A DNA stretch of 64,000 nucleotides from an uncultured Bacilli bacterium. GTDB taxonomy: Bacteria; Bacillota_I; Bacilli_A; RF39; UBA660. The notes under the pieces were generated by a model, which was not told where the DNA came from, ran no database searches, and saw nothing but the letters and a program-made list of their open reading frames with translations. A program made the position numbers and the translations under genes. The stretch lies in the NCBI GenBank assembly GCA_934140575.1, contig CAKPBJ010000004.1, positions 33,274 through 97,273 on the forward strand. The letters run 5' to 3'. Numbering within the stretch: the stretch's first letter is position 1; every line of letters begins with the position of its first letter. Shown in pieces: positions 260 to 46,492 of this stretch.

Positions 260-691
260 CTACTTAACTTCAAGTACTTCTGGCTTTTGAGCCTCGTGCT
301 TGTGTTCACTTTCTGCATAAACAAATAACTTCTTAGCCATTTGTCTACCTAATCTATTATGAGGTAACATTCCTGTTACTGCTCTTTCCATCATTTCAAC
401 TGGATAGCTTTCTCTCATAGTTTTTGCAGTTCTTTCTCTTAATCCACCTGTATACATTGAGTGATTATAGTACATTTTGTTTTCTAACTTGTTACCAGTT
501 AAATTTACTTTTTGAGCATTAACAATAATGATATAATCTCCACAATCAATATGTGGTGTATAAGTTGGTTTGTGTTTTCCACGTAAGTATGCTGCTGCTA
601 ATGAAGCAACTCTACCTAAAGATTTTCCTTCAGCGTCAATAACATACCATTTACGGTCTACAGTTTCTTTCTTTTGCATATAACTTGTCAT
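260..691 (-). CDS. rplM: 50S ribosomal protein L13
   Basis: The 143-aa ORF has uL13-family sequence ([17 protein letters not shown]...[10 protein letters not shown]) and sits directly upstream of rpsI in the conserved rplM-rpsI pair. Confidence 0.95.
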
Positions 692-1146: not shown

Positions 1147-1881
1147 TCAATTAAATTTCACATCTACTAAATATAATCCTTCGGCAGGAGCAGTTTTTCC
1201 TGCTTTTAACCTATCTTTTGATTCAATTATTTCTTTTATTTTATTCGGCTCTAGTTTATTTTCTCCAACTTTTATAAGTATACCAACCATATTTCTTACT
1301 TGATATCTCATAAAACCATTCCCTATAAAAGTTATAGTTAATTTATTATTATCTTCTTCTATATTTGTTTCTGTGATTGTTCTTATACAATTTTCTTTTT
1401 CTTTATTATCAGTTACAAAGGCTCTAAAATCATGTGTTCCTTTAAAATACTCTATGGCTTTTTTCATGGCATTGATATTTAATTTATAGTTATATTGGAA
1501 TACATAATTTCTTTCTATTGGATTATATTCACCTAGATTTATTATATATTTATATGTTTTTTCTGCTACATTATATCTTGCATGAAAATTATCATTTACA
1601 ATTTTTGTATCTATTACATGAATATCTTCTGGTAGGTTACTATTAAGTGCTCTTTTTAATTTATATTCTGTTATTGATACCTTAATATCTGCATGTCCAT
1701 ATTGTGATAATGCATGTACTTTTTTGTCTGTTCTACCAGTTGATGTTATAGTTGTCTTTACGCCGTTATTTATTTTTGTTAAAGCTTCTTCTAGTTTGCC
1801 TTCTATAGTATTTAGACCTGGTTGTTTTTGATATCCTGAGTAATTTGTACCATCATATGAAAATTTTATTAAAAAGCGCAT
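1147..1881 (-). CDS. truA: tRNA pseudouridine(38-40) synthase TruA
   Basis: The 244-aa ORF starts MRFLIKFSYDGTNYSGYQKQPG, the TruA family N-terminus. It lies in the conserved position between the ecfA genes and rplM. Confidence 0.9.
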   Translation of the reverse strand: MRFLIKFSYDGTNYSGYQKQPGLNTIEGKLEEALTKINNGVKTTITSTGRTDKKVHALSQYGHADIKVSITEYKLKRALNSNLPEDIHVIDTKIVNDNFHARYNVAEKTYKYIINLGEYNPIERNYVFQYNYKLNINAMKKAIEYFKGTHDFRAFVTDNKEKENCIRTITETNIEEDNNKLTITFIGNGFMRYQVRNMVGILIKVGENKLEPNKIKEIIESKDRLKAGKTAPAEGLYLVDVKFN

Positions 1882-1890
1882 ATAAACCTC

Positions 1891-2682
1891 CTATACGTGT
1901 TTGTAAATATCTTTTATTATATCTCTTATATCTTTATGATAATCAATATTTATATTTTTCTTTTTTTTAGCAATATATGTAAATTCAACTATTTCTGGAA
2001 TTGTTATTTTATTTCTTGTTAAAAAGTCTACTCTTTTATATAATTCCTCTGTTTCTCCTTCTGCAAGTATTTTATCATTTTTAAAGATAATTAAGTGAGT
2101 TGTATATTTATGTAGAATATTACTATTGTTTGAAACAAATATAATTGTTTTGTTATAGATATCTTTCATTTTATTTAGAAGCATAATTATTTTTTTCTCA
2201 TTTATTTTGTCTAAAAATTTGAAAGGCTCTATAATAATAATTAATGATGGATTTGATAAAAGGCCCATTGCTATTTGGATTAGCTTTTTTTCTGATGATG
2301 ATAATGTATAAATGTTTCTTTTTAGAATATCTTGATCTAATTCAACTATTTTTATTGAATCTTTTATTTTTTTATCTGGATTTTTTAGCTTTAATTTTCT
2401 TCTTATTATTTCATAATATAATAAATCATAAACTGTTTGTAGTTTTATATTTTCATCTATTTCTTCATTAATTATACTAATTTTATTTTTATATTTATTT
2501 ATATTATCTTTTGTTAATTCTTCTTGATCTATTATTATTTTGCCTCTATATGTATTTTTTAAATTTATAATTCTTACTAATTCTTCAGTATCCTTACCTG
2601 TTATTCCATTTATTTTTGCTTTTTCTATTGTAAAGTTTAGGAGATTGTCTTTATATTTGTAATTTTTAAATATCATTTCCAT
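1891..2682 (-). CDS. ABC-type ATPase-like protein with degenerate motifs (EcfA2 position)
   Basis: This is a 263-aa ABC-ATPase fold in the syntenic ecfA2 slot. Its Walker A is degenerate (GITGKD), its signature reads LSSSE, its Walker B reads IIIIEP rather than hhhhDE, and its H-loop His is replaced (SNNSN). Confidence 0.6.
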   Translation of the reverse strand: MEMIFKNYKYKDNLLNFTIEKAKINGITGKDTEELVRIINLKNTYRGKIIIDQEELTKDNINKYKNKISIINEEIDENIKLQTVYDLLYYEIIRRKLKLKNPDKKIKDSIKIVELDQDILKRNIYTLSSSEKKLIQIAMGLLSNPSLIIIIEPFKFLDKINEKKIIMLLNKMKDIYNKTIIFVSNNSNILHKYTTHLIIFKNDKILAEGETEELYKRVDFLTRNKITIPEIVEFTYIAKKKKNINIDYHKDIRDIIKDIYKHV

Positions 2683-3458
2683 AATTCTTCAACCATCCTA
2701 TTCATATCAAGTGTTAGTTTTGTTATTAATTCGTAATCTCTTAGTTTAACAGATAAGTCAACCATAAATGGTAAGTTAAGTCCTGCTTTATTTATTAAGT
2801 TGTCTCTTTGTAATATTGTAATTGGCTCTCCAGATAAAAGTGTTCTTCCCTCATCTATTATGTATAAATAGTCTGAGTAAAGGCTTTGGTTTAAATCTAT
2901 TGTTGTCATAATTACGGTTAAGCCAAATTTATCTCTATAATCTCTTAAAAAGTTATATACGTTTTCAAGTTCTTTTAAATCTAAGTAATTATCAATATTA
3001 TCCAATAGTAGAATGTCAGGATGATTTATTAGGGCAACTGCAATTTGAGCTAATACAATTTCACTTGTTGATAATGTATTTATCTCTTTGTTTAACATTC
3101 TTTTTATTTTTAGTCCTTTTACTATGTAATTCATAAATATTCTTTTATCTTTATCAAGTAATTCTGATTGGAATGATAATTCTTCTTCTAATGTATTTTC
3201 TATAAAAATTATTTCCTTTGGAATTACACTTCTTACTATCTTTAGATATTCATCAGGTTTATATTCGTTTATGTTTTTTCCATATAATATTATATTACTA
3301 TCTAATTTTATTTCTCTTCTTAAAATTCTTATAAGTGTAGTTTTGCCACAGTTATTTTTACCTGAGATAGTTGTAATTTTATTTTTTTCGATATAAATAC
3401 TTAAATTATTAAAAATATTTTTATATTTTAAGTCATTAATATTTAAAATAACATCCAT
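2673..3458 (-). CDS. ABC-type ATPase-like protein with degenerate catalytic motifs (EcfA1 position)
   Basis: The 261-aa ORF keeps a Walker A (GKNNCGKTT), but its signature reads LSTSE, its Walker B reads ILLLDN (the catalytic Glu is missing), and its H-loop His is replaced (TTIDL). It overlaps the next gene by 10 nt. Confidence 0.6.
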   Translation of the reverse strand: MDVILNINDLKYKNIFNNLSIYIEKNKITTISGKNNCGKTTLIRILRREIKLDSNIILYGKNINEYKPDEYLKIVRSVIPKEIIFIENTLEEELSFQSELLDKDKRIFMNYIVKGLKIKRMLNKEINTLSTSEIVLAQIAVALINHPDILLLDNIDNYLDLKELENVYNFLRDYRDKFGLTVIMTTIDLNQSLYSDYLYIIDEGRTLLSGEPITILQRDNLINKAGLNLPFMVDLSVKLRDYELITKLTLDMNRMVEELWK

Positions 3459-3490
3459 TTTACCACTCCCCTGAATTAATATTAAAAGCC
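3459..3490. terminator. hairpin with flanking T/A runs (possible intrinsic terminator)
   Basis: agccaactgttagctggct forms an imperfect 8-bp stem, followed by TTTTTTC on the plus strand and TTTTAAT on the minus strand. It sits between the SDR gene stop and the ecfA-like start. Confidence 0.4.
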
Positions 3491-3495
3491 AACTG

Positions 3496-4251
3496 TTAGC
3501 TGGCTTTTTTCTTTTGAATTCTATAAATTATTCTTAATAAGAATTTATCTGAAACAAATCTACTAAAGAATTTTGCACATTTCATTTTAAAGCCTGGAAT
3601 AATTAACATCTTGTTTTCTAGTGTTTTATCAATGGCGTAGCGTGCTACAAAAGCACTTTTTAATGGTTTAACTGAAAATTTCACCTTTGCTACATTATTA
3701 AAGTTAGTTTCTACTGGACCTGGGCATAGTACAGATACGTGTACTTTTGTTTTCTTTTTCTTTTCTTCATAGTATAATGCCTCTGTTAGTTGATATACAT
3801 ATGATTTTGTTGCATAATATGTACTCATTAATGGTCCAGGCTGGAAAGCTGCAGATGATGCGACATTTAATATATATGTATCTGAATCACGTTTTTCCAT
3901 ATCTTTTACAAATGATTTAGTTAATATATGAACTGCTTTGATATTTGTATTAATTAATTCTAAATCCTTGTTAAGGTCTGTTTCTGATAATGGTCCAAAG
4001 TCTCCTAATCCGGCATTATTTATTAACATATCAATATTTTCTTTTTTTGCTAATGCATACAATTCTTTTACTTTTTGTTCTTGAGAAAGGTCTGCAACTA
4101 TTATTGTTACTTTTGTAGGAAGTTTTTCTTGTATTTCTTCTAGCTTTTCTTTGTTTCTAGCTACTAATATTAACTCCCATTTTTTTGTTGCGAGATATCT
4201 AGCCATATCTAGTCCTATACCAGATGATGCGCCTGTTATTAATGCTTTCAT
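3496..4251 (-). CDS. short-chain dehydrogenase/reductase (SDR) family oxidoreductase
   Basis: MKALITGASSGIGLDMARYL carries the TGxxxGIG Rossmann motif, and YxxxK is present. The likely start is the internal ATG at 4251, preceded by GGGTGA. Confidence 0.8.
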   Translation of the reverse strand: MKALITGASSGIGLDMARYLATKKWELILVARNKEKLEEIQEKLPTKVTIIVADLSQEQKVKELYALAKKENIDMLINNAGLGDFGPLSETDLNKDLELINTNIKAVHILTKSFVKDMEKRDSDTYILNVASSAAFQPGPLMSTYYATKSYVYQLTEALYYEEKKKKTKVHVSVLCPGPVETNFNNVAKVKFSVKPLKSAFVARYAIDKTLENKMLIIPGFKMKCAKFFSRFVSDKFLLRIIYRIQKKKAS

Positions 4252-4314
4252 AAAATCACCCATTTCTCTTTTATTATAGCAAATTGTCAGCTGTTTTTCC
4301 ACTTAAATATTGCA

Positions 4315-4342
4315 TCAAAAAAGCAAGTAAAACTACTTGCTT
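4315..4342 (-). terminator. rho-independent terminator after rplQ
   Basis: The minus strand reads AAGCAAGTAgttttTACTTGCTT followed by TTTTTTGATG, directly downstream of the rplQ stop. Confidence 0.7.
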
Positions 4343-4347
4343 AAAAA

Positions 4348-4746
4348 TTATTTGTCTTCTTTTTTAGATTTTTTTGTTTCTTTTGTTTCTTCAGGTTTAG
4401 TTTCTTCAACTAATCTTAAAATTACCATTAAGGCATTGTCTCCACGTCTTTCATCTAATTTTAAGATTTGTGTATAACCACCATTACGATTTTCATAGCG
4501 TTTTGCTAAGTCATTAAATATTTTATCAACAACTTTTTTGTCATTATGTAAGAAAGCTAATGCTTTACGACGAGAAACTAAGTCACCTTTCTTTCCATAA
4601 GTAATCATCTTATCAACGAACTTACGTACTTCTTTGGCTCTAGTTTCAGTTGTTGTGATTGATTCATTTAAAACTACTTGCTTTGTTAATGTAGCTAATA
4701 AACTTCTTCTATGTTTATTATCTGAACCTAATTTTCTATATGCCAT
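4348..4746 (-). CDS. rplQ: 50S ribosomal protein L17
   Basis: [25 protein letters not shown] is the bL17 family N-terminus. The protein carries a K/E-rich C-terminal tail and follows rpoA. Confidence 0.95.
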
Positions 4747-4763
4747 AGTTACTCCTCCTTATT

Positions 4764-5714
4764 TTAGTCATCATCACGTAAGATTAAGCCCATATCTCTA
4801 ATTTTATCTAATACTTCTTTTAGAGATTTTTTACCTAAATTACGTATTTTCATCATATCAGATTCACTCTTATTTACAAGATCTTGTAATGTATGAATTC
4901 CTGCTCTCTTTAAGCAATTATATGCTCTTACTGAGAAGTCTAAATCTTCTATTGATGTTTCTAAAGCTTTAACTTTTGGATCTTCTGTTTTTTCAATCAT
5001 CATTCCACTTACATCAGCGATTGCTGATAAATCAGTTAAGATTTCTAAGTGTTCGATTAAAATTCTTGATGCTAATGCTATTGCTTCTTCAGGTTTAATT
5101 GAACCATTTGTCCAAACATCTAAAGTTAATTTATCATAACTTTCATCTTGTCCTACACGAGCATTTCCAACTTCATATGAAACTCTTTCAATAGGAGAAT
5201 AAATTGAGTCAATAGCAATTTCTCCAACACCTTTTATATCATGAATTCTCTTGTTATCTTCACTTCTAACATATCCACGACCATTTGTAACAGTCATTTC
5301 CATGCTGAAAGATGCACCTTTTGATAAAGTACAAATAACTTTATCTGGGTTAATTACTTCAATATCTGCATCATGTTCAATATCTGCTGCAGTTACTTCT
5401 CCTTCTTTTGTTGTGTTGATACGTACAACCTTTGCTTCATTTGAATGATTTTTAAATACTATTCCTTTTAAGTTTAAGATAATAGTAATTACATCTTCAT
5501 ATACTCCATCAATTGTTTGGAATTCATGAAGTACTCCATCAATTTTAATACTACTGATAGCGCTTCCTGGAAGAGATGATAGCATAACTCTTCTTAATGC
5601 ATTACCGATTGTAGTACCAAAACCTCTTTCTAATGGTTCTAGTTCGAATTTTCCATAAAAATTACTTTCTACAGAATCAGTTATTTTATAAATTGGTTTT
5701 TCAAATTGTAACAT
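4764..5714 (-). CDS. rpoA: DNA-directed RNA polymerase subunit alpha
   Basis: The 316-aa ORF has the RpoA N-terminal dimerisation domain and a C-terminal domain motif (VRAYNCLKRAGI). It follows rpsK. Confidence 0.95.
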   Translation of the reverse strand: MLQFEKPIYKITDSVESNFYGKFELEPLERGFGTTIGNALRRVMLSSLPGSAISSIKIDGVLHEFQTIDGVYEDVITIILNLKGIVFKNHSNEAKVVRINTTKEGEVTAADIEHDADIEVINPDKVICTLSKGASFSMEMTVTNGRGYVRSEDNKRIHDIKGVGEIAIDSIYSPIERVSYEVGNARVGQDESYDKLTLDVWTNGSIKPEEAIALASRILIEHLEILTDLSAIADVSGMMIEKTEDPKVKALETSIEDLDFSVRAYNCLKRAGIHTLQDLVNKSESDMMKIRNLGKKSLKEVLDKIRDMGLILRDDD

Positions 5715-5758
5715 GAAACTAACCTCCCTTTACTTTTTTTCACAAACTAATTTCTAAA

Positions 5759-6142
5759 TTATCCACGAGGACGTTTTGGTGGACGACATCCATTGTGTGG
5801 AATTGGTGTAACGTCAACGATTGATGTTACTTCTAGACCAGCTGTTTGTAATGAACGAATTGCAGTTTCACGACCTGGACCTAAACCTTTTACGCGAACT
5901 TCAACTTTACGCATACCCATATCGAATGCTGCTTTTCCTGCAGCTTCTGCAGCCATTCCTGCAGCGAATGGAGTTGATTTCTTACTTCCTTTGAAACCGA
6001 TTGCACCAGATGATGCCCAACTAATTACATTACCATCTTTATCTGTTAATGTTGTAATTGTATTATTAAATGTTGAATGAATATGAGCTATACCTTCTGG
6101 AACATTCTTTTTAACTTTTTTCTTTCTTGTTTTATAAGCCAT
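5759..6142 (-). CDS. rpsK: 30S ribosomal protein S11
   Basis: The 127-aa ORF has the uS11 sequence ([13 protein letters not shown]...[13 protein letters not shown]). Confidence 0.95.
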
Positions 6143-41319: not shown

Positions 41320-41847
41320 GTGAATCAAAAGGAAAAGAAAGGGTTAATAGCTTTAGTAATACTACTTGTAGTAGCTATTGGTGTTGGTTTTGCAGCATCA
41401 CAAGACGCAGTAAATATTACTGGTACTGCAAGCGCTGTTGCAACGGATTTTGATATTCAGTTTAAAACTGATGCTGAAATAACAATACAAAAAAGTGCTG
41501 GTGCTGCAATAGCTGCTTCAGGTGCTTATGGTGCTAATGGAAATGCTGATGCTACAATGACTGTTTCTGGATTAAAGAACGCTGGTGATTATGCAGAAGC
41601 AACTTATACTATCATAAACAAAAGTACTGATGTAAACGCTGACATTACAGCAAAAGTATCATCTGCTATTGAAGATGCAGATCATTATAATGTTGAAGTA
41701 ACAGGTGGTGCAAATGGTGTTGCTCCAGATGCAACAACTACTGTAACAGTTAAAGTTACACTAATCAAAGCTTTTGCTGATGATACAGCTGCAAAGACAG
41801 CAAAATCATTCAAAATTACAGCAACTGGTGTAGCAGCTGAAAAATAA
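41320..41847 (+). CDS. small secreted protein with SipW-cognate-type signal peptide (TasA/BsaA-like matrix-fibre subunit candidate)
   Basis: The 175-aa ORF uses a GTG start after AAAGGAGG. It has a K-rich N-region, an h-region, then FAASQDAVNITGTASAV. The mature part is Ala/Thr/Gly/Val-rich and acidic. Confidence 0.55.
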   Translation: MNQKEKKGLIALVILLVVAIGVGFAASQDAVNITGTASAVATDFDIQFKTDAEITIQKSAGAAIAASGAYGANGNADATMTVSGLKNAGDYAEATYTIINKSTDVNADITAKVSSAIEDADHYNVEVTGGANGVAPDATTTVTVKVTLIKAFADDTAAKTAKSFKITATGVAAEK

Positions 41848-41882
41848 TATTTGAAAGAAATTAATTAAGGAGGAGGTATATC

Positions 41883-43007
41883 GTGGCTAAAAGAAGAGAT
41901 TCGGCTTATATATACTTTGCATTTGTAATAGTATTTCTTCTCCTTAATCTTCTTGTGCTAAATATTAGTGCAAAATTACAATTGTTACCCATATTTATAA
42001 TTATATTTTTGTTAAGTTTTATCTTCTTCAAATTTAGAAAAGACAAAACTTATGCAAGAATTCGGGTAACTATTACAATGTTACTTATAGGAATTGTACA
42101 AATAGTTTTATATCTTTTAACCGGCTTTTTAGAGGGTTTTTCTAAGAATGCTATTAGTATGAGTTTTAACCGTTTTTTAACCGTTATTTTACCTATTATA
42201 TTAATATTAGTAGTTATTGAATTATTAAGATATATGATATCAGTAAAATTCGAAAAAAACAATTTAATAAGAATACTTAGTATTACTATGTTTGTACTAT
42301 TTGATGTGACTTTATTTGGCTCAAATGTGATTTTTAATAGTTTGGATTCTGTATTAGAATTTTTAGGAATAACGTTTTTTCCTAGTCTGGTAAGTAATAT
42401 TGTGTTTGATGATATGGTAGTTAAATATGGATATAAACCAATACTTGTTTATAGATTATTAACAACGTTATGTTATTACATGTTGCCTATCGTTCCTAAT
42501 ATGTATATTTTATTTAGGGCAATTGCAAGAATAGTTATTCCTCTTATTTTTTACTTCATATTATCTTATATGTATGATAGGGTAACGTTTCAAGAAGCAT
42601 TAAAGGTAAAGCCTAATATAAGTATTTCATCAATAATTATACTTATATTAGTAATTATTATGGCAGGTTTAATATCTTGCGAATTTAGATATGGTATTTT
42701 AACAATTGGAAGTGGTTCTATGACTGGAACTTTAAACAAAGGAGATATTGCTTTTGTCGAAAAATTTAATGGTCAGGAGTTAGAAATAGGTGACATTATT
42801 ATATTTAAACGAGGCAAAAGAAATATAGTCCATAGAATCACACAAGTTGGCATATTCAATGATGAATACGTTTATATAACAAAAGGAGATAAAAATAAAG
42901 TAGAAGATAATGGGTATGTTTATCAAAAGGATATTCAAGGTATAGTTCACTATAGGATAAAATATATTGGATACCCATCTATTTGGATAAGAAATTTATT
43001 TAATTAA
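41883..43007 (+). CDS. SipW-type (archaeal/ER-type) signal peptidase I fused to an N-terminal 8-TM domain
   Basis: The C-terminal roughly 110 aa read GSGSMTGTLNKGDIAFV...IVHRITQV...ITKGDKN, with the Ser and His of the SipW/Sec11-type catalytic dyad. The N-terminal roughly 250 aa contain 8 predicted TM helices and no His. The start is GTG after GGAGGAGG. Confidence 0.6.
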   Translation: MAKRRDSAYIYFAFVIVFLLLNLLVLNISAKLQLLPIFIIIFLLSFIFFKFRKDKTYARIRVTITMLLIGIVQIVLYLLTGFLEGFSKNAISMSFNRFLTVILPIILILVVIELLRYMISVKFEKNNLIRILSITMFVLFDVTLFGSNVIFNSLDSVLEFLGITFFPSLVSNIVFDDMVVKYGYKPILVYRLLTTLCYYMLPIVPNMYILFRAIARIVIPLIFYFILSYMYDRVTFQEALKVKPNISISSIIILILVIIMAGLISCEFRYGILTIGSGSMTGTLNKGDIAFVEKFNGQELEIGDIIIFKRGKRNIVHRITQVGIFNDEYVYITKGDKNKVEDNGYVYQKDIQGIVHYRIKYIGYPSIWIRNLFN

Positions 43008-43038
43008 TGTAATTAAAATTTAAAAAGGAGGTAAAGTT

Positions 43039-44133
43039 ATGGACAGAAAACAAATAAACAAAGTTATGCAAGCAACAAAAAAAAGAACTAGAACTATTGC
43101 TATTTTGATATTTGTTGTAATAGCTGTTTTACTTGCAGCTATAAGCATAATTTTTATCTCTATAAATAGTGAGAAGAATTACTACATTCATTATGATGAA
43201 AAAAGTGATTTAGATTATAAGGTATATTTAAAAGAAAATGATTATTTTGGAAGATACCTAGGTAAAAACAATCAATATATTGCAAGCCTAATTGATTATG
43301 TGGAGGCAGATTTTAATTATAAATTATCAATCGATGAGAAAATTGATTATTCATATTATTATTACGTAGAAGCAACTGTTCAGGTTTTAGATACTAATGA
43401 TAAACCATTATATAAAAAGGTTGATAAAGTAGTTGAAAAACAATATTTCAAGGATCCTATTAATCATGCTTTTGAAATAGATCAAACTGTTAATTTGGAT
43501 TATAATTACTATAATAATATAGTAAATACGTTTATTAAGAGATATAACTTATCAAATGTTAAAAGTAATGTCACTTTAAGTATGTATGTTGGAATTGAAG
43601 GGGAATGTAAAAAATTTGATTCTTCTTTAGCAGACAACGCAGTTATTAGTATGAACGTCCCATTAACAACAAACACTGTTAATATTGACATGAATTATAA
43701 ATTAAATAATTCTACAAACAAGTTATTAAAATGTAGAGAAGAATCAGTATTAAATAATAAATTACTTATTTTAGGCATAGTTTTATTATTCATTGATTTA
43801 GGTGTTTTCGTAGGAACTATTAGATATTCAAAAAGAACTAGAAGCACTTTAACTATATATAATAAAAAACTAAAAAGTATTTTTAATAATTATGGTCAAT
43901 ATATATCTAAGATTAAAACGGAGTTTAAATATGAAAAATTTCAAATTGTATTAGTTGAAGAGTTTGAGGATTTATTTGAGGTAAGAAATTCAAGTAATTC
44001 ACCTATATTATTTTGTCAGGATGAAACAAAAACAAGAAGTGCCTTTGTTGTTCCAACAAATTCTGGACTAGTGTACATCTATTATTATTCAATTAGTAAT
44101 GTGATTGAGCAAGGATGCAAACATGAAAGTTAA
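43039..44133 (+). CDS. bitopic (2-TM) membrane protein of unknown function
   Basis: The 364-aa ORF has a TM helix near residues 20-42 and a second near 243-262, with a Tyr/Asp-rich extracytoplasmic domain between them. It overlaps the next gene. Confidence 0.5.
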   Translation: MDRKQINKVMQATKKRTRTIAILIFVVIAVLLAAISIIFISINSEKNYYIHYDEKSDLDYKVYLKENDYFGRYLGKNNQYIASLIDYVEADFNYKLSIDEKIDYSYYYYVEATVQVLDTNDKPLYKKVDKVVEKQYFKDPINHAFEIDQTVNLDYNYYNNIVNTFIKRYNLSNVKSNVTLSMYVGIEGECKKFDSSLADNAVISMNVPLTTNTVNIDMNYKLNNSTNKLLKCREESVLNNKLLILGIVLLFIDLGVFVGTIRYSKRTRSTLTIYNKKLKSIFNNYGQYISKIKTEFKYEKFQIVLVEEFEDLFEVRNSSNSPILFCQDETKTRSAFVVPTNSGLVYIYYYSISNVIEQGCKHES

Positions 44134-46492
44134 AGATAAATTTTTAAAGGCACGAAAAAAATATAGTGATAGTAAGAAGTGGGCAATTTTTCTTATATTA
44201 ACTATATTTTTATTGAATATAGGTTACGCAGCTTCAAAGGCCTCGCTTGAAATAAATGGTAGTGCGAGTGCTGTAAAAGTACCAGAATTATTTATCGAAG
44301 AAGTAAAAATAATTGACATAAACGGATGTTCACAAAATGAACTTCCCATAACAAATGGAACTACTTTGGATACTAATATAAATTTTCCTTCTAATGAATA
44401 TTCATATATAACATATCAGGTAACTATTGCAAATGGTACGGATTCTATTCAAAAGTATACAGGAGAAACTTATAATAGCGTTACATCAACTAAAAATGTT
44501 ATTAATTATGAACTTACGGATGGTCTTTCTTCCGGTGAGTATTTGTTTCCTGGGAATAGTGCAACATATACGTTAACTTATAAGTATAGAAACGGTGCAA
44601 GTACAGGTAATTATGATTTGAAAATGAACTTTAATTTTGAAGATTCCGGTAAGTTTTCTGCACTTTCATATACAAATAGTGTTGATTTAACTAATAAAAC
44701 TAAGGAAGCCGTAAAAATTAAGGTAATGAATAATGGAGATTCTGCAATCAATTATAATCTCAACATAGATAATACTAAATTTGAACTAACTGATATTAAT
44801 GGAAATTTTTTAAGTTCTCTTTCTATAAAAGCTCATACTGAAGAAGAAATAACTGTTTATATATCCAAAAAGCCAGATGTTACATATTACAAAACAGAAT
44901 ATGAAACAAACTTTAGTTTAAGTTATAATGATATTACACTAGATTTTGGAAAAATAAAAATAAAAACAAATACAACAAGTGGCTATGTTGATACAACACC
45001 TCCTCAAATAGGGGCAGTATCAGTTGATATCGTATATGAAGTCGGATCAATTGATGTTACTTGGTCTAATTTAGATAATAAAAATGAGGCTCCAGTAACT
45101 AATTATGTTGTTTTACTTTATAATGATTCGGGAACTCTTGTTACAACCGGAAACACTGGTAATTCAGATACCACCTATAGATTTAAAAATCAAGCACAAG
45201 GAAATTATTATGCTGTAGTTTATGGTATAGACGAAGCTGAAAATTCAGGAGAAACTTATGTTTCAGTTTCTTCAACATCAACAACCAATGCAAGAAAATC
45301 TGTTACAAAAGAAATGAGATGGAAAAGAACAATAACATATAATGTTACAAATATTAATGTTACAGGACCTAATGAGGCTAATTTAGGTGAGTCATTTACA
45401 GCTACATTAAAACCGAATAATAACTATAAATATAATTCTGTTCCTTCAGTTACGTCAGACGGTAAAACTTTTAAAGATTATTCAACGGATGCTAATAAAT
45501 ATACTATAACAATAAATCAGGTGACAGGTGATTTAGTTATTAATGCAACAGCAGCAAGAAATGCTTGCCTTGCTAAAGGAACAAAAATATTACTTGCAAA
45601 TGGCAAATATAAGAACATAGAAAATATTAGATATGATGATTTACTAATGGTATATAATCATGAAAATGGTACATTTACTCCTGAATATCCTATTTGGATT
45701 GAAAAAGGTAATTTGTCTAGTAATTATCAAGTAATAACATTTAGTGATGGTACTTCTTTAACAACGATTGATAAACATTCTTTATTTAGTGTTGATGATA
45801 ATAGATATGTTGATGTAACAGATGAAAATACATTTCACGTTGGAACTAACATATTAAAAACAGTAAAATCTAAGAGAGGTTACAAGCTCAAAAGTGTTTC
45901 TGTAACTAATATAGAAAAGGTAAATAAATCGATTGATTATTATGACGTTGTATCAACAAGATACTATGATATAATTGCAAACGATGTATTAACATCAGAT
46001 GGAAGAACAGGACTAGTTAATTTTTATGAATTTAAGGAAAATGCTGTTTGGTCTTCAAGAAGACAAGAAGTTATAAAGAATAATACATTCTTAAACTATG
46101 AAGATTATAAATTTATTCCGTATTACTTGTTCCATGGCTTAAGAGCACAAGATGGAGCGGTTATAATTAAGTATAATTATATGACTAAAGAAGAATTTGA
46201 ATCTGTGTTTACCGATTTATTATTAAATAAAGAAATGGTATTAGATCCAATAACTAAAAACAAAAAAAGATATTGGATGGTAACAACATCAGATGATAAA
46301 GTAACAAGTAAAAATAAAGGAAAATATTTACTGAAAGAAAATAGTTATTATACGTTAGAAAAACCTAAGAAAACGAAAGATTTCAAAGGTTGGTATAATA
46401 CTGGCGATGGGAAAATTTATAAACCTGGTAGTAAGGTAAAGATATATCATGGTACACATTTTGTTGCATCATATAAAAAAATTAGCTCATAA
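44123..46492 (+). CDS. large secreted multidomain protein (SipW-cognate-type signal, FN3-like, Hint/intein-like domain, C-terminal Flg_new-like repeat)
   Basis: The start is taken at ATG 44123, with AAGGA 6 nt upstream. The signal ends NIGYAASKASLEINGSASAV, which parallels gene 41320. An FN3-like segment is present (DVTWSNL...YRFKNQAQGNYYAVVYGIDEAENSG). The Hint N-terminus reads CLAKGTKILLANGKYKNIENIRYDDLL and the Hint C-terminal block reads YYDIIANDVLTSDG. The C-terminus, FKGWYNTGDGKIYKPGSKVKIYHGTHFVASYK, resembles a Listeria-Bacteroides repeat. Confidence 0.6.
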   Translation: MKVKDKFLKARKKYSDSKKWAIFLILTIFLLNIGYAASKASLEINGSASAVKVPELFIEEVKIIDINGCSQNELPITNGTTLDTNINFPSNEYSYITYQVTIANGTDSIQKYTGETYNSVTSTKNVINYELTDGLSSGEYLFPGNSATYTLTYKYRNGASTGNYDLKMNFNFEDSGKFSALSYTNSVDLTNKTKEAVKIKVMNNGDSAINYNLNIDNTKFELTDINGNFLSSLSIKAHTEEEITVYISKKPDVTYYKTEYETNFSLSYNDITLDFGKIKIKTNTTSGYVDTTPPQIGAVSVDIVYEVGSIDVTWSNLDNKNEAPVTNYVVLLYNDSGTLVTTGNTGNSDTTYRFKNQAQGNYYAVVYGIDEAENSGETYVSVSSTSTTNARKSVTKEMRWKRTITYNVTNINVTGPNEANLGESFTATLKPNNNYKYNSVPSVTSDGKTFKDYSTDANKYTITINQVTGDLVINATAARNACLAKGTKILLANGKYKNIENIRYDDLLMVYNHENGTFTPEYPIWIEKGNLSSNYQVITFSDGTSLTTIDKHSLFSVDDNRYVDVTDENTFHVGTNILKTVKSKRGYKLKSVSVTNIEKVNKSIDYYDVVSTRYYDIIANDVLTSDGRTGLVNFYEFKENAVWSSRRQEVIKNNTFLNYEDYKFIPYYLFHGLRAQDGAVIIKYNYMTKEEFESVFTDLLLNKEMVLDPITKNKKRYWMVTTSDDKVTSKNKGKYLLKENSYYTLEKPKKTKDFKGWYNTGDGKIYKPGSKVKIYHGTHFVASYKKISS

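Follow-up and report, generated by a model that had tools for sequence, protein, structure and literature searches.

What becomes of the paired ATPases of an energy-coupling factor (ECF) transporter when both of their genes stay in the ancestral chromosomal slot, most of their catalytic residues are gone, and the gene for the membrane scaffold EcfT is missing from its place next to them? This question is raised by a 64-kb stretch of DNA (the window, to which all positions refer unless another locus is named) from contig CAKPBJ010000004.1 of an uncultured Bacilli bacterium. ECF transporters are the main route of B-vitamin and micronutrient uptake in Firmicutes, and their ATPases are usually treated as obligate motors. 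The window encodes two overlapping ATP-binding cassette (ABC) ATPases, referred to here as A1' and A2', the orthologues of EcfA1 and EcfA2, respectively. As described below, they belong to a clade-wide, selectively maintained pair that probably works as an ATP-binding, nonhydrolyzing clamp or sensor heterodimer and no longer as a transport motor.

Identity of the ATPase pair and its chromosomal slot

In the annotated records of B. subtilis and C. difficile, the genes follow the order rplQ-ecfA-ecfA'-ecfT-truA-rplM-rpsI, the same order that a sequence-only reading of the window had taken as canonical for Firmicutes. The corresponding minus-strand order in the window is secY, adk, infA, rpmJ, rpsM, rpsK, rpoA, rplQ, a gene for a short-chain dehydrogenase/reductase (SDR), A1', A2', truA, a short remnant open reading frame (ORF), and rplM. 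The A1' and A2' genes overlap by 10 nt (2673-2682), and truA starts 9 nt past the A2' stop codon, so that there is no room for ecfT at this point. The sequence-only reading had reported the absence of ecfT from the slot and the SDR gene intercalated after rplQ, as well as the gene coordinates, the lengths of 261 and 263 aa, and the 10-nt overlap; all of these were exact on re-check.

Both proteins score far below the curated equivalog cutoffs of the NCBIfam models for this family, A1' reaching 96 bits against TIGR04520 (ECF_ATPase_1; cutoff, 315) and A2' reaching 99.6 bits against TIGR04521 (ECF_ATPase_2; cutoff, 330), but these are still their top NCBIfam models. The A1' family profile (residues 16-261) is collinear with residues 41-295 of L. 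delbrueckii EcfA1 (5jsz_A; E = 1.7e-22) in an alignment that reaches the C-terminal LW(K/Q). An AlphaFold2 model of A1' (pLDDT, 91.5; pTM, 0.87) finds its best Foldseek matches in CbiO (5x3x and 5x40) and in the EcfA proteins of 6zg3, 8bms, and 7nnt, all over the full length and with TM scores of 0.84-0.88. A1' combines the ABC nucleotide-binding domain (NBD) fold with the ECF-type C-terminal domain and, the intercalated SDR gene aside, is encoded where EcfA1 is expected, downstream of rplQ as the first of two overlapping ATPase genes. A2' can be aligned to CbiO (3gfo) and to EcfA2 (4mki_B) and is linked to canonical EcfA2 proteins in the same slot by a graded series of relatives. A1' and A2' are true but strongly diverged orthologues of EcfA1 and EcfA2, and their genes would be vertical descendants of ecfA1 and ecfA2 within an RF39-type lineage of gut Bacilli.

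With the canonical group II pairs (YbxA/YbaE of B. subtilis and the ATPases of L. delbrueckii [5JSZ/5D3M], L. brevis [4HUQ], and C. subterraneus [4MKI]), A1' and A2' share the slot after rplQ and right before truA-rplM, the order of the paralogues, the gene overlap, the fold, the extra C-terminal domain, and collinearity over the full length. Unlike those pairs, they have no adjacent ecfT, an SDR gene lies between them and rplQ, their model scores are low, and their catalytic motifs are eroded.

Loss of catalytic motifs

Motifs were read from alignments with solved and annotated EcfA proteins (Table 1). Of the EcfA1 catalytic set, just the Walker A motif and the Walker-B Asp are left in A1'; of the EcfA2 set, just the Walker-B Glu and the D-loop Asp are left in A2'. 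The Lys of the A2' Walker A motif is lost: the A2' segment GITGKDTE aligns to GIFGRGKT and GITGSGKT in two less-degenerate relatives (L052 and L060) and to GHTGSGKS in B. subtilis. The degeneracy described in the sequence-only reading stands in these alignments with one exception. The H-loop His is absent from both proteins (replaced by Ile in A1' and by Asn in A2'), as is the LSGGQ signature, and the one degenerate Walker A motif is that of A2', the motif of A1' being intact. The Walker-B Glu had been reported lost from both; this is correct for A1', where it is replaced by Asn, but A2' keeps a Glu at the catalytic-base position and has lost the Mg-binding Asp, replaced by Ile. Both Q-loop glutamines are gone as well (Pro in A1' and Glu in A2'), a point absent from that reading.

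Asymmetric conservation of the two sites

Residue counts over 81 family members show that different parts of the two proteins are conserved. In A1', the Walker A motif and the helix that follows it form the most conserved segment (mean column identity, 0.85): G33, G38, and K39 are each found in 80 members and T40 in 79. The Walker-B D153 is kept in 80 members, and the A-loop position Y12 is aromatic (Tyr or Phe) in 66. The residue following D153 is Asp in 46 members, Asn in 21, Ser in 6, and Glu in only 4. Pro occupies the Q-loop Gln position in 77 members, and no member has His at the aligned H-loop position, which holds Ser, Ile, Leu, or Thr, although 5 of them have a His one residue later. 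The A1' signature segment (L-S/T/P-x-K/F-E/I) and D-loop, both of which would be turned toward the A2' site, are variable.

In A2', it is the P-loop region that varies across the family. Position 151 is Asp in 30 members, Glu in 28, and Ile in 9, whereas S128 and E131 of the signature and D158 of the D-loop are found in all 81 members, and S130 is found in 74. These invariant elements (S128, E131, and D158) are the ones that would close over the A1' site, and such asymmetric conservation is as expected if a constitutive heterodimer keeps one nucleotide-binding site. The best-conserved long stretches are the C-terminal domains of both proteins. That of A1', with DLSVKLRDY as an example, has a mean column identity of 0.76, with DLSVKL, D241, and Y242 invariant in an alignment of 22 sequences; that of A2', which ends in DYHKDIRDIIKDIYKHV, is the best-conserved part of the protein (mean column identity, 0.77).

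In canonical complexes, the coupling helices of EcfT carry conserved Arg residues at their ends, and these contact Asp residues in both EcfA and EcfA' (PMC4820897). The corresponding acidic position is unconserved in A2', with Glu in 17 members, Lys in 15, Asp in 9, Thr in 7, and other residues in the rest. The conservation of these contact acids, partial in A1' and absent in A2', would be consistent with loss of the interface.

Phyletic distribution and selection

When one genome per GTDB species was scanned, at least 171 proved to encode a relative of A1', and 80 of these loci were retained and examined. A protein search with A1' returned at least 621 matches, the best 120 of them all at least 48% identical, and a protein identical to A2' is present on human-gut contigs of up to 387 kb, e.g., in Hadza samples. 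The genomes of the relatives come from the guts of humans, rabbits, and mice and from the rumen, under record names that include "uncultured Mollicutes/Tenericutes/Bacilli," "Mycoplasma sp. CAG:877," and "Candidatus Faecimonas intestinavium." Judged by record names such as "Mycoplasma sp. CAG:877" and not by GTDB taxonomy, these relatives appear to be RF39-type Bacilli.

All 80 loci have the order rplQ-(variable)-SDR-A1'-A2'-truA-(variable)-rplM, without ecfT. The 10-nt overlap of the ATPase genes is found in 77 of 78 loci, and A2' and truA are no more than 44 nt apart in 74 of the 78 loci that allow this measurement. Identity to the window proteins ranges from 38 to 95% for A1', 40 to 96% for A2', 65 to 95% for TruA, 71 to 98% for the SDR, and 88 to 99% for RpoA. 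None of the 80 species has a broken ATPase frame; the few copies that are shorter are truncated by contig ends. Pairwise ratios of nonsynonymous to synonymous substitution rates (dN/dS; Nei-Gojobori method) are mostly 0.06-0.17 for A1' and 0.03-0.30 for A2', low and similar to those for truA (0.05-0.13), and both ATPase genes are therefore under purifying selection. The sequence-only reading had offered two explanations for intact frames with dead motifs. Retention for a noncatalytic role is supported by the intact pair in every species, the low dN/dS values, and the invariant residues; a very recent loss of ECF transporter function is refuted, because an order-level clade with A1' proteins now only 38-77% identical shares this state, which is also the end point of the multistep series described below.

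Search for EcfT and other ECF components

Using tblastn and hidden Markov models (HMMs), no counterpart of the B. subtilis and C. difficile EcfT proteins was found in the window or within 10 kb on either side of the pair in the 80 related genomes. Likewise, no homologue of the canonical T protein, of the T protein of the relative L096, or of a small ORF with four transmembrane (TM) segments that occupies the T slot of other relatives was found in the window or the remaining 78 related loci. Pfam scans of the multi-TM ORFs in the window revealed neither CbiQ (PF02361) nor any S-component family, and no ECF genes were seen in the ~8 kb beyond rpsI or in the ~10 kb beyond the other end of the window. 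The window has no second ecfA pair, and the ABC ATPases recognized in Pfam scans of selected ORFs (FtsE and an exporter just outside the window) are not of the ECF type. Thus, the EcfT scaffold with its Arg-containing coupling helices is missing from the locus, the window, and the 80 related loci alike. Two candidate locations were considered and rejected. The space between truA and rplM is occupied by a cassette that encodes a two-TM protein and small Ser/Thr-rich proteins, and the 235-aa protein encoded after rpsI has neither TM segments nor a Pfam match.

A stepwise series in relatives

A HMMER search with A2' against 1.84 billion representatives yielded 71 proteins at E ≤ 1e-30, forming a continuum to canonical-looking EcfA2. 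The wider clade shares a Glu-ended signature (LSxGE or LSxSE) and a C-terminal ...DLIKDIYRxV tail, a motif also found in relatives with EcfT (...DINDLIKDIYRxV); its distant members retain GxxGxGK[ST], the Q-loop, the Asp-Glu pair, and, sometimes, the His. When the relatives are arranged by the state of the T slot and of the catalytic motifs, five stages can be distinguished.

The first is represented by L098 ("Mycoplasmatota bacterium" GCA_044432805.1), L097, L096, and the P0220 contig, with the order rplQ-SDR-ecfA1-ecfA2-CbiQ-truA (the CbiQ-family protein being 245-251 aa long) and with Walker A and Asp-Glu in both ATPases. The H-loop His is present in both ATPases of L098 but only in A1 of L097 and L096, and the T protein of L096 matches the EcfT proteins of B. 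subtilis and C. difficile at E values of ~1e-29. L098, L097, and L096 resemble the window in the order rplQ-SDR-ecfA1-ecfA2, the 10-nt overlap, the Glu-ended signature, and the tails (...D(I/L)(I/M)KD(I/V)Y(K/R)xV in A2 and ...LWK in A1) and differ from it in having a CbiQ-family EcfT between ecfA2 and truA and in the intact motifs just mentioned. Their A1 proteins, which coexist with a bona fide EcfT, have a noncanonical Q-loop (VF[ENT]NPD) and LSGGE, LSSGE, or LNTNQ signatures; the wider clade therefore began with an unusual ECF ATPase pair.

In the second stage (L095), the T slot holds a gene for a 228-aa protein without a Pfam match, of which only the N terminus resembles EcfT (E = 7e-6); A1 has Asp-Asp and no His, and A2 is fully canonical. 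In the third (L092, L052, and L060), a membrane ORF of 203-207 aa occupies the T slot, and A2 retains Walker A, Asp-Glu, and His. In the fourth (L066, L046, and L091), there is no T protein, and A2 lacks the His while retaining Walker A and Asp-Glu. In the fifth, which includes the window and the majority of relatives, neither a T protein nor an A2 Walker A is left. In a rough neighbor-joining tree of rpoA, rplQ, truA, and rplM, lineages with a retained Walker A lie close to the base, and the tree suggests that the A2 Walker A was lost several times independently.

The small, conserved T-slot protein of the third stage is confined to lineages in which EcfA2 has all of Walker A, Asp-Glu, and the H-loop His; the L052-type family has 7 members among 5.8 billion proteins. 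Its likeness to EcfT lies in its position, its topology, and an N-terminal xNPxx(K/E) similar to the EcfT start. The 204-207-aa ORF of L052 and L060 has no Pfam match even at an E value of 10, and its comparison with B. subtilis EcfT is not significant by BLAST and gives an hhalign probability of 0.3%. The AlphaFold2 model of this type of ORF has a pLDDT of 61 and no Foldseek matches. A weak, collinear similarity to the L092 ORF (E values of 4e-6 without composition correction and 0.15 with it) adds to the points in its favor. A relic or miniaturized EcfT, an interpretation that failed every statistical test applied, is plausible but unproven.

A possible function of the pair

The most economical reading of these data is reductive evolution in place. 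The ecfT gene would have decayed where it stood, first shrinking and then vanishing; without a scaffold to drive, ATP hydrolysis would have become dispensable and would have been lost later, as the catalytic residues of A2 eroded. The A1' and A2' proteins would still be made, and the constitutive EcfA-EcfA' heterodimer most likely persists through the highly conserved C-terminal domains. Of its two composite sites, the one made up of the P-loop side of A2' and the signature side of A1' would be destroyed. The surviving, constrained site would consist of the A-loop Tyr, P-loop, and Walker-B Asp of A1', closed by the LSxSE signature and D-loop Asp of A2'; because it lacks the catalytic Glu, H-loop His, and Q-loop Gln, it would be expected to bind ATP-Mg and to hydrolyze it very slowly or not at all. 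A heterodimer with this single ATP site may have stayed useful for another job. The sequences argue against ATP hydrolysis by A1'/A2' being coupled to uptake. With the A2' Walker A destroyed and A1' devoid of Glu, His, and Gln, the pair, as judged by its motifs, could not be an ordinary motor even given a T protein elsewhere. A more detailed scenario, which we regard as possible but tentative, is that of a soluble ATP-sensing pseudo-ABC heterodimer recruited to a nontransport function across an entire order of abundant, uncultured gut bacteria, with the degenerate site serving as the sensor and the extremely conserved, highly charged C-terminal tails (DLSVKLRDY in A1' and DYHKDIRDIIKDIYKHV in A2') as the interface for a new partner.

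A degenerate, nonhydrolytic site is known in the heterodimeric ABC transporters TM287/288, TAP1/2, and LmrCD and in NBD1 of CFTR. The A1' site is similar to these in having an intact Walker A, Asp or Asn in place of the Glu, no His, and a deviant partner signature, and the pairs of L095, L092, L052, and L060 likewise have exactly one degenerate and one consensus site. In the transporters, however, the second, consensus site hydrolyzes ATP and a TM domain is present, whereas in the window A2' no longer has the Lys of Walker A or the Asp of Walker B, so that the consensus site is destroyed, and there is no membrane partner at the locus.

Several observations weigh against a nonhydrolyzing clamp or sensor. 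We infer ATP binding, dimerization, and the lack of hydrolysis from sequence patterns, and the loss of ECF transport likewise. Asp is found at the A1' catalytic-base position in most relatives and A2' keeps its Glu, so that residual activity is conceivable. The analysis identified no candidate output partner for A1'/A2'. E82 of A1', at the acidic position contacted by the EcfT Arg (PMC4820897), is Glu in 55 of the 81 members, and a groove-binding partner could persist. Finally, about 82 kb of this species was read (64 kb plus ~18 kb), and ecfT, a second canonical ecfA pair, or S-components may be encoded elsewhere.

The last two points are also the ones that favor a pair still in the service of a transporter, with an EcfT-like scaffold, too divergent for recognition or encoded elsewhere, docking to A1'/A2' and with S-component transport or gating powered by ATP binding or by very slow single-site hydrolysis. 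That T-like partners can become unrecognizable is illustrated by the 203-207-aa four-TM protein in the T slot of relatives, undetectable by Pfam. However, the searches for T homologues in the window and related loci came up empty; the T family of the clade is small (44 proteins, each on few contigs, versus at least 621 A1' matches), and its members with readable context are all in the ancestral slot (5 of 5), with none relocated. In addition, the acidic groove position is unconserved in A2', and, along the series, the disappearance of T is accompanied by that of the His and, next, of the Walker A motif in A2, as would be expected had hydrolysis become useless. We consider such a transporter unlikely. 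Still less probable is a second, canonical ECF module elsewhere, which would make A1'/A2' a redundant copy, free for a new function. Most of the genome lies outside the stretch read, but this proposal has no direct support: the pair sits in the orthologous slot, the closest less-degenerate relatives carry the only T protein seen in that same slot, and neither FtsE nor the nearby ABC exporter provides a second ECF-type pair. That A1' and A2' are functionless, either as recent pseudogenes or as frames kept for translation into truA, is hardly credible. The two do evolve faster than their neighbors (38-77% identity versus about 90% for RpoA and about 80% for the SDR), and the tight gene packing would permit translational coupling. 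However, the frames are intact in 80 of 80 species with dN/dS far from ~1, residues are invariant in the P-loop, the LSxSE signature, and the C-terminal tails, and coupling alone would not conserve amino acid identities.

Table 1. Genes and motifs of the A1'/A2' locus, with the small T-slot protein of relatives
Feature	Positions	Strand	Description
rplQ	4348-4746	-	Ribosomal_L17; upstream anchor of the conserved slot
SDR oxidoreductase, 251 aa	3496-4251	-	Pfam adh_short, E = 5.5e-42; between rplQ and A1'
A1', EcfA1 orthologue, 261 aa	2673-3458	-	ABC_tran; best NCBIfam model, ECF_ATPase_1
A1' Walker A, GKNNCGKTT	3336-3362	-	Intact
A1' Q-loop/Q-helix region, VIPKEIIF	3204-3227	-	Aligned to canonical VFQNPDNQF; Q-loop Gln replaced by Pro80
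A1' signature, LSTSE	3060-3074	-	Replaces LSGGQ; expected opposite the dead A2' site
A1' Walker B and D-loop, ILLLDNIDNYLD	2979-3014	-	LLLDN; Asp retained, catalytic Glu replaced by Asn
A1' H-loop region, MTTIDL	2892-2909	-	Aligned to canonical SITHDL; His replaced by Ile
A1' C-terminal domain, DNLINKAGLNLPFMVDLSVKLRDY...LWK	2676-2804	-	Equivalent of the canonical GLDLPF...LW tail
A2', EcfA2 orthologue, 263 aa	1891-2682	-	ABC_tran; best NCBIfam model, ECF_ATPase_2
A2' former Walker A, GITGKDTE	2584-2607	-	GxxGxGK[ST] in relatives; Gly-Lys-Ser/Thr lost
A2' signature variant, LSSSE	2290-2304	-	Faces the A1' P-loop site
A2' Walker B and D-loop, LIIIIEPFKFLD	2209-2244	-	IIIIEP, aligned to VLILDEPTAGLD; Asp replaced by Ile, Glu and D-loop Asp retained
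A2' C-terminal domain, IPEIVEFTY...DYHKDIRDIIKDIYKHV	1894-2031	-	End of A2'
truA	1147-1881	-	TIGR00071, 214 bits; occupies the place normal for ecfT
rplM	260-691	-	Ribosomal_L13; downstream anchor of the conserved slot
Small T-slot protein	L052:11576-12199; L060:11576-12190; L092:2797-3408		203-207 aa, three to four TM segments

The SDR gene and other features of the region

The SDR is catalytically intact, with TGxxxGIG, NNAG, and YxxxK motifs, and is encoded upstream of A1' in 80 of 80 loci at an identity (71-98%) far above that of the ATPases. Terminator-like hairpins flank the gene at 4321-4342 and 3484-3508 on the minus strand, which suggests that it forms its own transcription unit. Although its adjacency to A1' is conserved, we see no evidence that the SDR works with A1'/A2': its gene was in place upstream of ecfA1 before T was lost, as ecfT-bearing relatives show, insertions of ~1 kb lie between it and A1' in several species, and a terminator-like hairpin comes after it.

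Between truA and rplM, the window carries a remnant at 818-1100 on the minus strand, including a 58-aa ORF (894-1070). Two pieces survive, residues 26-92 and 236-264 of a 263-aa protein that has two TM segments, the conserved motifs KLGAxKFQ, NRNYH, and NFECINIQNYN, and no Pfam match. L006 and L007, the closest relatives, and more than half of the 80 genomes have an intact copy in this place, flanked by one or two genes for small Ser/Thr-rich proteins with the sequence SLSDEEL. This cassette is variable and has decayed in the window genome.

In one metagenomic contig (ERZ27287024 k141_2011712, locus L005, positions 3100-5788), A1', A2', the SDR, and RpoA are identical to those of the window, SecY and Adk are 65 and 57% identical, respectively, and there is an extra map gene, a combination indicative of a mosaic produced by recombination, or of a chimeric assembly, directly upstream of infA. 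Immediately past the right end of the window comes the region L089:1-5011, probably an integrated element, with genes for a phage-type integrase, an Arm-DNA-binding protein, a Fic protein, and a fused ABC exporter. Within the otherwise minus-strand window, there is a plus-strand island with reversed GC skew at 41320-46492. It encodes a 374-aa protein with eight TM segments and a signal peptidase S26 domain, a DUF5305 protein, and a 795-aa protein with a weak match to the Hint domain.

Implications

Degenerate NBD sites as such are well known. In the full-text literature, we found no description of EcfA pairs that lack T or are catalytically dead, nor of the ECF status of RF39, and an EcfA1/EcfA2 pair that selection maintains throughout a clade, with its two catalytic sites disabled and without EcfT, appears to be new. 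The relatives provide a finely graded natural series of ABC module decay, in which one site degenerates, the membrane subunit then shrinks and vanishes, and the H-loop and, finally, the Walker A motif are lost. They also offer a candidate nontransport role for an ABC NBD pair that would need nucleotide binding but not hydrolysis. Annotators will label such genes "ABC transporter ATP-binding protein" or "ECF transporter ATPase."

Members of the RF39-type clade have small genomes and are still uncultured. If the proposed function is correct and no other module exists, these bacteria would also have given up general ECF vitamin uptake, the machinery for which is, to our knowledge, otherwise nearly universal in Firmicutes. 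The resulting prediction for RF39, that there is no ECF-type vitamin uptake, would be relevant to attempts at culturing these organisms and to their metabolic models.

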